32,339 bases of DNA from an uncultured Candidatus Saccharibacteria bacterium (GCA_964625325.1 CAZVBA010000003.1:1-32339); one strand, 5' to 3'. Shown: positions 20,188-25,993, counted from the first letter of the stretch. Program-made: numbers and translations. Notes: generated by a model not told the origin, from the sequence alone.

Positions 20188-21030
20188 ATGCTAAACATAA
20201 AAAACCGTATACATATAACATGGCGCCAAGCGCTCGCTCTGATAGCGCTAGGTTTCCTGGTGGTTATTAGCCATTTGGGCCATACACCGGCGCAAACGGT
20301 TATCCAGGGCTACGATACTGACACCACCCTGCAGCACGGCATGATTATCGCTATCAGCCAGAAAGACGCCACCAAGGTCGAAGCCGCCACCAGCAGTAGT
20401 GTCGAACGTATGCGTGGCGTCGTCGTAGATCCAGCCGACGCCGCTGTGACGCTATCATCGCCCAGCCAGAAGGTGTTTGTGGCCGGCGCCGGTCGTTATT
20501 CGGTATTGGTTAGTAATCAGAACGGCTCTATCCACGCCGACGATTACATCAGTATTTCTTCATTGCCCGGTATTGGTATGAAGGCCAGAGGTGATCAAAG
20601 TATAGTCTTAGGTCGTGCCATCACGGCCTTTGATGGTACTAACCACGTAATTAGCACCGCCTCAGTTATTGACAAAAGTACCAAGCAAGTGGCCATTGGA
20701 ACAGTAACGGTCGATATCAATATAATTCGTAATCCGCTAGTCGGCACTGGTAATTCCAGCTTACCGAGCTTCTTACAATCGGCCAGCACAACGATTGCCG
20801 GCAAAGATGTCAGCCCCGGCAAAGTCTATCTGGCGGCGGTTATTTTGTTGATGGCCGGTATTATCAGCGGCAGTATGCTCTACGCCGGTGTGCGGAGCAG
20901 TATTGTGTCGATTGGTCGTAACCCTTTGTCCAAGCGTTCCATCATTGGCAGCCTGCTTCAGGTGGTCATCACCAGTCTGATTATTTTCATCGGTGGGCTT
21001 TTTGGGGTATATTTATTACTAAAGTTATAG
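20188..21030 (+). CDS. Exported-domain protein with C-terminal ATP synthase subunit-c-like hairpin
   Basis: N-terminal hydrophobic segment, ~180-aa beta-rich domain, then TM - SIGRNPLSKRSI - TM at the C-terminus; occupies the atpE slot. Confidence 0.65.
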   Translation: MLNIKNRIHITWRQALALIALGFLVVISHLGHTPAQTVIQGYDTDTTLQHGMIIAISQKDATKVEAATSSSVERMRGVVVDPADAAVTLSSPSQKVFVAGAGRYSVLVSNQNGSIHADDYISISSLPGIGMKARGDQSIVLGRAITAFDGTNHVISTASVIDKSTKQVAIGTVTVDINIIRNPLVGTGNSSLPSFLQSASTTIAGKDVSPGKVYLAAVILLMAGIISGSMLYAGVRSSIVSIGRNPLSKRSIIGSLLQVVITSLIIFIGGLFGVYLLLKL

Positions 21031-21052
21031 TTCGTAAGGCGGGTGGGAAATA

Positions 21053-21670
21053 ATGAATCTTTGGGCAGTCATAGCCGTACTGGGAATGCTGGCAGCAACA
21101 ACAGCCGCTTTCCTCTGGTTAGCCTTGAGGCTGCCGGCGTCTAAACAGTCGAAAACCGGCGCTCAACAGTTTGGCGAAGCGGCCGAAGACGACGTTGAGC
21201 ATATTTTCAATGACGAGTTTCGTGAAGAGTTACGCAACCGTGGGCGGCTGCACTTCGAGAAAATCATCGGCGAGAACGCTATGTTCCTGCAGCAGGACTT
21301 GCGCCTGACGACTTCCCAACTCAATGAATACATGAAGGGCGAGATAACTCGTACCCTACAGGAAGAATTCGCTAAATACGAGGAATCAATTACCGACGCC
21401 AAGCAACTGGCGATTGATTCAATTGAAAAGACCCAAACCGCCATTGAACAACAGCGACAACTACTTAATCAGCAACTGCAAAAGGAAGTCGCCGATGAGA
21501 AGGCGCGGCTGATTACCAACTTCGAGAAAAACATGGCCGATATCGTCAATCACTACGTTCTGGCCGCCGTTGGCAACCAAATTGACCTGAGCGACCAGCT
21601 GGACTACATCTTGAGCGAACTCCAAGATAACAAAAAAGCGATTATCGAGGACTTAACCCGTGGCTCATGA
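21053..21670 (+). CDS. Subunit-b-like peripheral stalk protein
   Basis: Single N-terminal TM then a long charged helical/coiled-coil region; atpF position. Assignment by architecture and position only. Confidence 0.6.
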   Translation: MNLWAVIAVLGMLAATTAAFLWLALRLPASKQSKTGAQQFGEAAEDDVEHIFNDEFREELRNRGRLHFEKIIGENAMFLQQDLRLTTSQLNEYMKGEITRTLQEEFAKYEESITDAKQLAIDSIEKTQTAIEQQRQLLNQQLQKEVADEKARLITNFEKNMADIVNHYVLAAVGNQIDLSDQLDYILSELQDNKKAIIEDLTRGS

Positions 21671-22139
21671 TAAACAACTAAGCTTGCCTTACTCGGTTGT
21701 CGGTCGCAGCGATGTCGGCCGGCTAATTCGCGAGCTGGAAGCTCTGGAAGCGGCTATGCAGCGCAAGACCGCTCAAAAAGATGAAAAACTATTGCCAACT
21801 TCGCGCTTACTGGACGATTTGAGTCAGCAAAACAAACTCAACCTGCTGCAGCCCGACGATCGCGCCGCCCTCAAGCAGTTTTTGGAGCAAGTGCGCAAAG
21901 ACGCACCGCAGTTACACTTCAATTTTAGTACCGATCCCTCACCGCGCTTTATGGCCAGCCTGGTCGGTTGGGTACGCCAGGAAATCCATCCGGCGGCGCT
22001 GCTGCAAATCGGCTTGGAACCGGCCCTCGGCGCCGGCTGCACGCTGCGCACCACCAACCGTTACTTCGATTTCAGCCTGCGCCACTACTTTGACAACCAG
22101 CGCGAATTGCTGCTGTCGAAGATGAAGGGCGGAGCCTGA
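21660..22139 (+). CDS. Subunit-delta (OSCP)-like protein
   Basis: C-terminal [21 protein letters not shown] matches delta's DPSLIGG..I....D.S; atpH position. Confidence 0.7.
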
Positions 22140-23569: not shown

Positions 23570-24420
23570 AGGCCTTACATGAAGTTGAGCGCGAACAGCG
23601 TTCGATGAAAACACTACGCGAACTGACCGGCGTTTTTGAAGGCTTGGCCAGCATGCGTATCGCCCAAATTAAGAACCAGGTTTTGCAGGCCACTGAATTC
23701 TTCGAAGAGCTTTGGCACATCTACACTCAGCTGAGAGTCGATAACCTATTCCGTTTCGGTCGTAGCCAGTCCGACGAAAAGGTGATTGATAAAGACCTGA
23801 TTATATTGATTACCGCCGAGGGCGGCCTTAGCGGCGATATTGACCAAAAACTGGTCAACTGGATGCTGACTAAACACGATAAGGCCAACCAAGAAATTAT
23901 TGTTATTGGCCACCACGGCGCCATGCAGCTGGCCCAAGCCGGCATCGGTTTCAGTAAGTATTTCAAACTGCCGGTCAAGGACCGCGACATTAACGTCAAC
24001 CCGCTAATTGTTGAAATGCAACGTCATCGCCGGACCATCGTCTATTACCAGCAGTACATCTCGTTGATGGTCCAGGACGTTAAACAGATTGAAATCGGCA
24101 AAGCCATTGCCCAGCAAGGCAAAACCGCCGGTGGCAGTGAAGATATTATCAGTGAAGAGACCTATATTTTTGAGCCCAGTACCTACGCTGTCGTCGACCA
24201 CCTGGAACGCTCGATGATGAAGATTGCCCTCAGCCAGCTGATTTTGGAATCAAAGCTGGCTCAATACGCCTCGCGCTTCAGAGCCATGTCAGCCGCCCAC
24301 GATACGGCTCGTGATCTGGTAAAGTCGACTAATATTGAATATAACCATGCCAAGCGTGCCTTGAAAGACGAGCGCTTGCGCGAAATTGTCATGGGCTTTA
24401 AAAGGGTGGGTGTCAAATGA
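23566..24420 (+). CDS. atpG: F1-ATPase gamma subunit, divergent
   Basis: [28 protein letters not shown]...YNHAKR...REIV. Confidence 0.88.
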
Positions 24421-25724
24421 ACCCCGGACACATCATTGCCGTCAAAGATTTGATTGTACGCGTCCAGTTTGATGACGAAGTGCCCAAGGTTGGCGAGTTG
24501 CTGATTGTCGACAACGGCTTTGAAACCAAAATACTGGTTGAACAGCTGGCCCCTCAAGGTGTAGCCATTTGTCTGAACGTCCGCAGCGACCGGCGCTTGC
24601 AACACGGTATGGCCGTCAACCGCACCGGTAAGGGCATTGAGGTGCCAATTGGCCCCAAAACGATCGGCCGCATTTTCAATGCCTTTGGCGAGCCCCTAGA
24701 CGGTTTACCGCCCATCAACGACAAAGACTTGCAGTATCGTAATATTCAAACTATTCCGATCCGCGCCACCGACTTTCAAGTTACCAAACCGGAAATACTG
24801 GACACCGGTGTCAAAGTGATTGACTTCTTCACGCCGTTCGTCAAGGGACGCAAAATCGGCATCATCGGCGGCGCCGGCGTCGGTAAGACCGTTTTAACCA
24901 TGGAGCTGATTAATAACGTCGCCATGAAGCAGCTAGGCTTGAGCTTTTTCGCCGGCATCGGCGAACGTATTCGGGAAGGCCACGAGCTTTATGAAACTCT
25001 CAAAGAGAATGAGCTATTGAAAAATACCGTCATGTTTTTCGGGCAAATGAATGAGAACCCGGCCCAACGATCCTTAATTGGCTTGGCGGCCGCTACCCTG
25101 GCTGAATATTTTCGCGATGATGAGAAGAAAGACATCCTGTTCTTTGTCGACAACATGTACCGCTATGTCCAGGCCAGGAACGAACTGGCAACGCTGATGG
25201 ACCGCGTACCGAACGAGGGTGGTTATCAGCCGTCTATCTTTTCGGATATCAAGGTCTTGCAGGATCGCCTAAGTTCAAACAATAATGGCTCGATCACGTC
25301 CGTCCAAACCATTTATGTGCCGGCTGACGATTTGAGCGACCCGGCCGTGCAGATGATTCAGCACGAACTGGATTCGGTTATCGTCCTGTCCAGAACCGTA
25401 GCCGAACAAGGTATCCGCCCGGCGGTTGACCTGGCTCACACCAGCTCCTCTCTACTGACGCCGGAAATAGTCGGCGAACGCCATTACCTGCTGAGTGTCC
25501 AAGTGCAGGCGCTGCTGCAGAAATACGATTCGCTCAAGAACATCATAGCGATTATTGGTGAGAGCGAATTGAGTGCGGCCGACCGGGCCGATTATGCCAA
25601 GGCCAAGAAGCTCATCCAAAACTTCTCGCAAAACATTCACGTTATGGAGAAGTTAACTGGCATGGCTGGCGAGTACTATACGCGCGAAGAGACCCTCAAA
25701 TCGATAGAGGAGATCATAGTTTAA
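24417..25724 (+). CDS. atpD: F1-ATPase beta subunit, divergent and C-terminally shortened
   Basis: [15 protein letters not shown] (catalytic Glu), [38 protein letters not shown]. Confidence 0.94.
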
Positions 25725-25993
25725 TGGCTGACGCGAAAACCACCACTCAACCGACAATGCACGTCAAGGTTTATTCGCCTTATAAAACCTATTTTGACGA
25801 CGAAGCTTACAGTGTAACGGCCCTGAATGCTACCGGGCCGTTTGATATTTTGCCGCACCATCATAATTTTATGACTCTGCTGGGGGCTTCAGACATTACG
25901 GTCCGCGGGTCATCTGGCGACCATAATATCCGCATTTCGCAAGGTGTTATGCACGTTAAGACCGACAAAGTAATTATTTTTCTGGACGTATAA
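25724..25993 (+). CDS. atpC: F1-ATPase epsilon subunit, N-terminal beta-sandwich only
   Basis: VKVYSP, GPFDILPHH..FMTLL, ISQGVMHV; 89 aa with no C-terminal helices. Confidence 0.8.
   Translation: MADAKTTTQPTMHVKVYSPYKTYFDDEAYSVTALNATGPFDILPHHHNFMTLLGASDITVRGSSGDHNIRISQGVMHVKTDKVIIFLDV

Follow-up and report, generated by a model that had tools for sequence, protein, structure and literature searches.

An F1-like ATPase operon of seven genes, encoded on the + strand at positions 20188-25993 of a 32,339-nucleotide (nt) stretch from an uncultured Candidatus Saccharibacteria bacterium (GCA_964625325.1 CAZVBA010000003.1:1-32339; hereafter the window, whose numbering is used throughout), constitutes a separate module of the Saccharimonadales, distinct from the canonical F1Fo ATP synthase, and is no decayed atp operon. 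Its genes are arranged in the order X-b-delta-alpha-gamma-beta-epsilon, where X designates a protein that ends in a hairpin of two transmembrane (TM) helices. On balance, we favor the view that the module is an F1-like machine driven by ATP hydrolysis and not coupled to ions, with X as its likely membrane partner.

The F1-like operon and its relation to canonical F1Fo

The seven genes are co-oriented (Table 1). From b to epsilon every stop codon overlaps the following start, by 11, 1, 4, 4 and 1 nt in turn, and X is separated from the b-like gene by a gap of 22 nt. The gene immediately upstream (19010-20152) codes for a class-V aminotransferase (Aminotran_5, E 5.5e-61) which fits IscS/NifS, and no subunit a adjoins the operon according to a Pfam and NCBIfam scan of the open reading frames (ORFs) of the window. 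The gene order, the overlaps, the iscS-type neighbor and the lack of an adjacent atpB had all been described in an earlier, sequence-only reading of this DNA, and the ORF and Pfam scan bears them out.

The module comprises an alpha3beta3-type head with all of its catalytic residues, a gamma stalk, a beta-sandwich epsilon, and b-like and delta-like proteins. In agreement with the earlier claim of an intact catalytic site, the Walker A motif GGAGVGKT, the Glu of GERxREG and the Walker B Asp are invariant in all 37 beta sequences, and the Arg finger is invariant in all 37 alpha sequences; the Walker A Lys, the two acidic residues and the Arg finger presumably have the catalytic roles known for them. 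The four F1 subunits score below the cut-offs of the NCBIfam equivalogs for the canonical enzyme (alpha, atpA 386.9 bits versus 484.45; beta, atpD 440.3 versus 462.85; gamma, TIGR01146 94.8 versus 194.45; epsilon, 46.1 versus 67.25). The alpha subunit is 37% identical to the canonical alpha of a relative and is 13 residues (aa) shorter at its N-terminus, where delta is bound in the canonical enzyme. The beta subunit is 42% identical to a canonical beta of a relative, and gamma is conserved among 23 aligned orthologues. Epsilon consists of the N-terminal beta-sandwich alone: of the 130 positions of the NCBIfam models its alignments span 1-79, and all but two of 23 orthologues (21) stop right behind the sandwich. 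The genes in the epsilon position of the canonical operons of relatives, identified by position only, code for 140-142 aa. The C-terminal domain of canonical epsilon inhibits ATP hydrolysis.

The delta-like protein matches no Pfam or NCBIfam family, including PF00213; over its C-terminal 61 columns, hhalign pairs it with canonical delta from relatives (E 6.7e-5, probability 64%). The b-like protein, which has the plan of subunit b (a single TM helix followed by a long helical region), is the best conserved of the accessory proteins, with 49-85% identity across type-A operons; it is not matched by PF00430, and NCBIfam gives a weak hint (alt_F1F0 B, E 0.012).

The relation of the module to canonical F1Fo was assessed from the distribution of both. 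The genome of the window, that of a soil bacterium (740,792 bases in 63 contigs, 83% complete), contains this alpha/beta pair only, and neither subunit c (PF00137, E<=1), subunit a (PF00119) nor a canonical operon was found in it. Since G001, a genome of the same genus, holds a, c and an alpha cut by a contig end in addition to X-b-delta-alpha-gamma-beta-epsilon, the genome of the window may merely miss its own canonical operon through incompleteness. Among 41 close genomes, that of the window included, PF00137 is found in 35, PF00119 in 36 (in 35 over the cut-off) and the alpha/beta family PF00006 in 40. Most of these genomes have four PF00006 matches, with one pair beside a and c and a lower-scoring pair beside an X homologue; the canonical alpha and beta score about 275 and 247 bits, the pair of the second operon about 230 and 220 bits. 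The canonical operon of the relatives consists of an atpI-like gene, a, c, b, a short delta (128-135 aa), alpha, gamma, beta and the ORF of 140-142 aa. Some genomes (G015, G023 and G038) show six or seven PF00006 matches, corresponding to a canonical operon and two F1-like operons of different subtypes.

In a sample of 201 genomes of the order Saccharimonadales, assigned by their source names and with the unpublished G038 counted as one genome, the b-like gene of the second operon occurs in 162. In a sample of the phylum it occurs in 17 of 401 genomes, 15 of them from this order, one from another order and one from another class. According to source names, the family belongs to Candidatus Saccharibacteria/Saccharimonadales metagenome-assembled genomes.

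An alternative explanation, which we regard as most improbable, is that this second F1, with b and delta, docks on the canonical Fo (a and c-ring) encoded elsewhere, so that two heads would share one base. In its favor, it is precisely a and c that are missing from the operon, and the b-like marker and PF00119 occur together in 153 of the 201 genomes. PF00119 is missing from 18 of the 201 genomes, however, and nine of these carry the b-like gene. Five of the nine are near-complete, namely G180 (one contig, 98% complete), G058 (4 contigs, 98%), and G055, G131 and G206 (95-96%). In each of them PF00006 scores over the cut-off exactly twice, both times within an unbroken X-to-epsilon operon, and neither PF00137 nor PF00119 is found in them at E<=1; a borrowed canonical Fo therefore cannot explain the module in these five genomes, where the explanation is refuted. 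In the other four, too, the b-like gene occurs without PF00119. In the five genomes the module is the sole F-type ATPase, without a or a carboxylate-bearing c. The search for a second, canonical operon, which the sequence-only reading had called for, accordingly gave two answers: such an operon is present in most relatives, and none was found in the genome of the window or in these five. Similarly, that reading had spoken of a loss of a and of the c carboxylate; the operon does lack both, but it is a separate, deep-branching paralogous module and not the atp operon of the organism stripped of parts.

This last point rests on a quick maximum-likelihood tree of 43 beta rows, rooted on two alphas. 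A branch of length 0.69 with 100% SH-aLRT support (a likelihood-ratio test in approximate, SH-like form) parts the betas of the second operons from 21 others. On the one side are all 19 second-operon betas and one unnamed representative; on the other are two canonical Saccharimonadales betas, the G1-type beta of Mycoplasma mobile, a Type-3-like beta and 17 representatives. The G1-type and Type-3-like sequences were chosen by NCBIfam labels on ten beta representatives; the nearest representatives examined are unnamed or generic F1 betas. The outgroup is a small sample picked by similarity, and the root lies on a long branch. The module appears from this tree to be a distinct and old lineage that branches deeply, neither a recent duplicate nor nested with the mycoplasma types.

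Protein X and its likeness to subunit c

Hydropathy places an N-terminal hydrophobic segment of X at aa 10-33 and two TM segments at aa 213-231 and 259-277. The first, which had been proposed as an export signal, is consistent with either a signal or an anchor, and about 170 aa lie between it and the hairpin. The hairpin loop, SIGRNPLSKRS, is rich in positive charge; it is predicted to be cytoplasmic, and the N-terminal domain to be exported. As the earlier reading described, X ends in TM-loop-TM with GRNP at the tip, Leu occupies the position 18 residues after the loop Pro (P+18), and helix 2 has no acidic residue; X in fact contains neither Asp nor Glu beyond D207.

All 30 aligned homologues of X share an unvaried GRNPL, and the X of G180, beyond these 30, reads IDRNPL. 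None of the X hairpins examined, including those of the five genomes without a canonical operon, has an acidic residue at P+17 or P+18. Glu occurs at P+22 in one paralogue and at P+12 in three, and the conserved polar residues of the hairpin are Q at P+12, T/S at P+16/17 and GS in helix 1. GRNP occurs in only 2 of the 3530 six-frame ORFs of the window genome, which makes it unlikely that chance put it on the tip of a hairpin encoded just upstream of b.

In the canonical c of 29 relatives the loop reads GRNPE in all 29, and GRNP is thus common to these and to the X hairpin. Helix 2 of all 29 also has an acidic residue (Glu or Asp), and wherever its position was counted this was P+17 or P+18. 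Subunits c contact gamma and epsilon through their loop. Comparison of the hairpin profile with canonical c by hhalign gave a probability of 52% (E 1.4e-4, 18 columns) with nine c sequences and 70% (E 4.2e-5, 14 columns) with 29. Against the whole PDB at E<=10, the hairpin profile retrieved a single match, ATP synthase subunit c (E 0.16), in an alignment that spans the loop and helix 2 and sets the Glu of c opposite a hydrophobic residue of X. Conversely, a local c profile run over 6189 ORFs found X proteins as most of its best non-c matches (E 0.0085-0.15). X also occupies the operon slot of atpE. Its hairpin is thus, as far as sequence comparison can tell, c-like in topology, loop and operon position.

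X matches no Pfam or NCBIfam family at E<=1. The X family numbers 961 proteins, every listed name being "hypothetical" and from Saccharimonadales/Saccharibacteria. A search with the hairpin at E<=1 found no longer form among proteins of 491-2000 aa. The 12 short matches do not demonstrate a free-standing hairpin, since they all lie on contigs of <=5143 bases and the sole named one is marked partial. PF23982 (XM1 gp53 minor capsid) was dismissed as uninformative for the exported domain, as its matches are all sub-threshold (in one X homologue, E 8.5e-6 and 26.1 bits versus a cut-off of 27). The same genome encodes a protein of 3445 aa, a C-terminal region of which resembles residues 42-149 of X (E 9e-8, 34% identity). 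This giant ORF (L078, G000:C15:2068-12405) has no Pfam family and shares with X a domain of about 110 aa. A second giant ORF, of 2500 aa (L079, G000:C28:1443-8945), carries LVIVD repeats.

A tree of 35 X proteins shows two clades (support 100/98). The first contains 19 rows, all of them linked to an operon; the second contains 11 solo copies and five copies linked to divergent operons. Six of the 11 solo paralogues of the second clade (L043, L045, L046, L048, L052 and L053) contain Glu in helix 1 at a distance of 19 residues ahead of the loop Pro. This Glu, absent from operon-linked X, would sit roughly as deep in the membrane as the carboxylate of canonical c, though on the opposite helix of the pair.

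These polar residues bear on the possibility that the module pumps ions or makes ATP by means of an unconventional Fo, in which ions would be bound by a ring of X, either at polar residues other than carboxylates or at the helix-1 Glu seen in some paralogues, and an unrecognized channel protein would take part. The conserved Q, T/S and GS of the hairpin and the Glu of the solo copies could be seen as serving such binding. Operon-linked X, on the other hand, bears no carboxylate at P+17 or P+18, helix 1 forms the inner layer of known c-rings, and there is no conserved multi-pass membrane protein in or beside the operon: none was found from the IscS-like gene to epsilon at any examined locus, and the sole neighbor with 12 TM helices, at a single locus, is a major facilitator superfamily (MFS) transporter. 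We consider an unconventional Fo quite improbable.

Linkage of X to the operon and a proposed mechanism

The association of X with the module was examined in 37 full operons, comprising 20 fetched loci, six further loci, five divergent loci, five from the genomes without a canonical operon, and the window. X lies directly upstream of b in 29 of the 37, the window included. The order b-delta-alpha-gamma-beta-epsilon is found in 20 of 20 fetched loci, with X directly upstream in 12; X is beside the operon in 6/6 further loci, 5/5 divergent loci and 5/5 genomes without a canonical operon. The divergent loci come from another order, another class and family f62 (the operon is present in members such as G134, G155 and G200), and their b is only 21-33% identical. 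At one locus from another order (L069, genome G364), four small ORFs of 123-204 aa, one of them on the opposite strand, stand between gamma and beta; three of the four have predicted TM helices.

Among the 201 genomes of the order, the X profile is found in 157. X and b occur together in 151 genomes, b alone in 11, X alone in six and neither in 33. Seven of the 11 b-only genomes show weak b matches, of the kind seen in b-delta remnants, and some X-only rows have weak scores that resemble domain matches in large proteins. Remnants of this type are present in the four of these seven that were inspected (G013, G113, G057 and G132; L074-L077), in which only b and delta stand after an IscS-like gene, with other genes behind them, and alpha to epsilon have been lost. 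Their b-like and delta-like ORFs are 37-43% identical and lower, and X was not found in any of the four genomes. They may be slowly decaying remnants, or b and delta may have a role of their own.

A competing explanation is that X is an unrelated surface protein which merely lies beside the operon, the head with b and delta forming a membrane-tethered ATPase with another partner or role. Speaking for it, second-clade copies of X sit among housekeeping genes or next to large surface proteins. Most of the paralogues in genomes whose operon lacks X follow ORFs that cluster with an isoleucyl-tRNA synthetase-type gene (ileS) and a gene for ribosomal protein L21 (rplU-like), as identified by Pfam on one representative locus. 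In three of the 11 solo loci the neighbor is a protein of 1000-1540 aa, in two cases with Kelch or LamG domains. The domain common to X and the 3445-aa surface protein, the weak profile signal to c, the operons without an adjacent X and the genome G006, whose operon is kept although no X was found there, point in the same direction. By contrast, adjacency is maintained in all five very divergent operons, the distribution of X follows that of b across the order, searches for X gave nothing in the four inspected genomes lacking alpha to epsilon, and the GRNP of X, encoded in the atpE slot, is identical to that of the canonical c loop. We therefore regard an unrelated X as unlikely.

For the favored machine, with X as membrane partner, the following mechanism is proposed. 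The complex would work only as an ATP hydrolase, because there is no ion path and epsilon is devoid of the inhibitory C-terminal domain. X would serve as the membrane partner, its GRNP loop copying that by which c contacts gamma and epsilon, and ATP-driven torque or conformational change would pass via an X oligomer to the exported domains. The output would be mechanical work at the cell surface, with no ion pumping. A more specific version, which we offer tentatively and hold to be doubtful, is that X assembles into a rotor that resembles a c-ring, has no carboxylates and holds gamma and epsilon by its GRNP loops; hydrolysis would spin or twist a ring bearing a crown of exported domains, thus transmitting torque across the membrane to the surface of the epibiont for attachment, handling of surface proteins or interaction with the host. 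Such a device would have arisen independently of the mycoplasma F1-like X0.

Several observations weigh against the hydrolysis-driven machine with X as its partner. X is not beside the operon in eight of the 37 loci; at six of these eight, an IscS-like gene (judged by eye from translations) lies <=413 nt from b, and six of the eight genomes have only a second-clade paralogue of X, encoded elsewhere. One genome that is 99% complete (G006) keeps b-delta-alpha-gamma-beta-epsilon, and X was not found in it by either a protein or a profile query. The co-occurrence of X and b is read here as a pattern only, since related genomes are not independent and the table overstates the support. Synteny of X with the operon, a point that the earlier reading had asked to be tested, holds at most loci and agrees with the co-occurrence, but it is broken at these eight. 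As to the hairpin, PF00137 matched 0 of 30 X hairpins even at E<=10, and the likeness to c is confined to the 14-18 columns of the loop. Because the likeness is limited in this way and PF00137 matches none, homology of the X hairpin to c is plausible but not established. The proposed check of the hairpin against PF00137 was thus negative, while the loop motif and the weak profile signals speak for the likeness. The b-like protein gave no significant hhalign match to canonical b (probability 7%), such that homology is not demonstrable, and a single b helix acting as a stator without subunit a is hard to account for.

Known systems, neighboring features and significance

The closest concept among described systems is the Type 3 F1-like X0 of mycoplasmas (the MSC_0618/0619 family; MMCAP2_0575-0581), which, according to the accessible portion of PMC12994834, is needed for the MIB-MIP antibody-cleavage system and is specific to mycoplasmas. 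Judged by that portion, in both cases a bacterium with a reduced genome and dependent on a host has seven clustered genes next to a canonical F1Fo operon. Homologues of alpha, beta, gamma and epsilon are present and a and c are missing, the alpha-like subunit is shortened at its N-terminus, and there are a small cytoplasmic protein (about 18-19 kDa) and a membrane protein that combines an N-terminal signal with a pair of TM helices at the C-terminus (PMC12994834). The resemblance in logic is striking, but it does not amount to membership. The Saccharibacteria cluster comes from a different phylum and has a different gene order; it contains no 12-TM protein, it has kept b-like and delta-like stalk proteins, and its X has 280 aa, as opposed to the 87-kDa two-TM protein of mycoplasma. 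Its beta and alpha score 386.1 and 250 versus cut-offs of 570 and 520 (NF045934/NF045936), and the betas of the two systems fall on opposite sides of the 100%-supported branch. Membership in Type 3 was consequently rejected on family scores, the absence of the 12-TM protein, gene order and tree position.

The G1-ATPase of M. mobile (Type 2; MMOB1660/1670), the gliding motor of this species, likewise has an F1-like alpha/beta/gamma head, which does mechanical work at the cell surface without ion coupling, and it is in this respect that we propose a likeness. The present module differs in its family scores (314.1 versus a cut-off of 600, and 333.8 versus 850) and in lacking the beta N-terminal extension of about 300 aa (its beta has 435 aa). 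The closest solved structures of its beta are ordinary F1 betas (376 bits), and the match to G1-ATPase is weaker (273 bits).

With canonical F1Fo (atpIBEFHAGDC) the module has in common the gene order from the c slot to epsilon, the catalytic residues, a b-like topology, a putative OSCP-like C-terminal domain of delta and a two-helix hairpin tipped by a GRNP loop. It differs from it in the lack of a and of the carboxylate, in the fusion of the hairpin to an exported domain, in the truncated epsilon and the sub-cut-off F1 subunits, and in that a canonical operon exists separately in most relatives. N-ATPases (TIGR03305/03324) similarly represent a second, early-branching F-type operon beside the main enzyme. 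Their models score 406.7 versus a cut-off of 752 and 336.6 versus 750.5, and neither a nor c is present here. N-ATPases have a, c and AtpQ/AtpR and are not known to have a separate delta (in part after 10.64898/2026.10.01.756066). On family scores, N-ATPase, the FliI/type III secretion system ATPase and V/A-type enzymes were all excluded.

A literature search for "F1-like ATPase" with Saccharibacteria, and for "F1-like" ATPase with Patescibacteria, retrieved no paper. The second operon is not described in the accessible portions of PMC10633639, PMC12815258, PMC10656485 and 10.64898/2026.06.21.733656. An October 2026 preprint alludes to unusual beta neighborhoods in the candidate phyla radiation (CPR); the accessible part of its main text, supplementary figures aside, contains no description of them. 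The module may therefore be previously undescribed in the literature found, and the supplementary figures of PMC12994834, a source accessible in part, may bear on its novelty.

Table 1. Features of the F1-like operon and its hairpin in the window. Family E-values are from Pfam.
Feature	Position	Strand	Description
X	20188-21030	+	280 aa; N-terminal signal or anchor, exported domain, C-terminal two-helix hairpin
X C-terminal hairpin (TM1, loop, TM2)	20824-21030	+	From hydropathy; no membrane carboxylate
GRNP loop codons of X	20914-20925	+	aa 243-246
b-like peripheral-stalk protein	21053-21670	+	205 aa; one N-terminal TM helix (aa 3-21), then long helical region
delta-like protein	21660-22139	+	159 aa; OSCP-like C-terminal domain
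alpha-like non-catalytic subunit	22139-23569	+	476 aa; PF00006, E 3.6e-65
gamma-like central stalk	23566-24420	+	284 aa; PF00231, E 3.7e-30
beta-like catalytic subunit	24417-25724	+	435 aa; PF00006, E 5.1e-65
Short epsilon	25724-25993	+	89 aa; PF02823 (ATP-synt_DE_N), sole Pfam match

Several further features surround the operon. Just 5' of the IscS-like gene, the window codes for a 130-aa protein without a Pfam family (18580-18972, +), and ORFs that visibly resemble it hold the same position in several relatives. Convergent with epsilon is a gene for a 322-aa protein (25997-26965, -) with an N-terminal TM helix and Gly-rich repeats, for which bactofilin and H-lectin hints are both sub-threshold. 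Next come two ORFs (246 and 229 aa) with no Pfam family (27076-28514, +). In one relative, the operon is neighbored by an MnmA-type tRNA methyltransferase. Promoter and terminator scans of the locus yielded site counts no higher than those in shuffled sequences. DNA of the locus was seen in four soil metagenome runs, all of one study, and no RNA dataset was listed.

F1-like ATPases without ion coupling have so far been described only in mycoplasmas, where they serve in gliding and antibody evasion. A comparable but phylogenetically separate module is present in about four fifths of the sampled Saccharimonadales genomes, and in some of them it is the sole F-type ATPase. Annotations of "ATP synthase present" in Patescibacteria may thus count a machine that is unable to make ATP or pump ions. 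X may illustrate the re-use of a c-type hairpin without its carboxylate, possibly as an intermediate. The operon also provides a concrete, conserved target for genetics in those cultivable Saccharibacteria that carry it. If the proposed reading is true, F1 would have become a mechanical ATPase independently in two groups of bacteria that are unrelated but alike in having reduced genomes and living attached to hosts.

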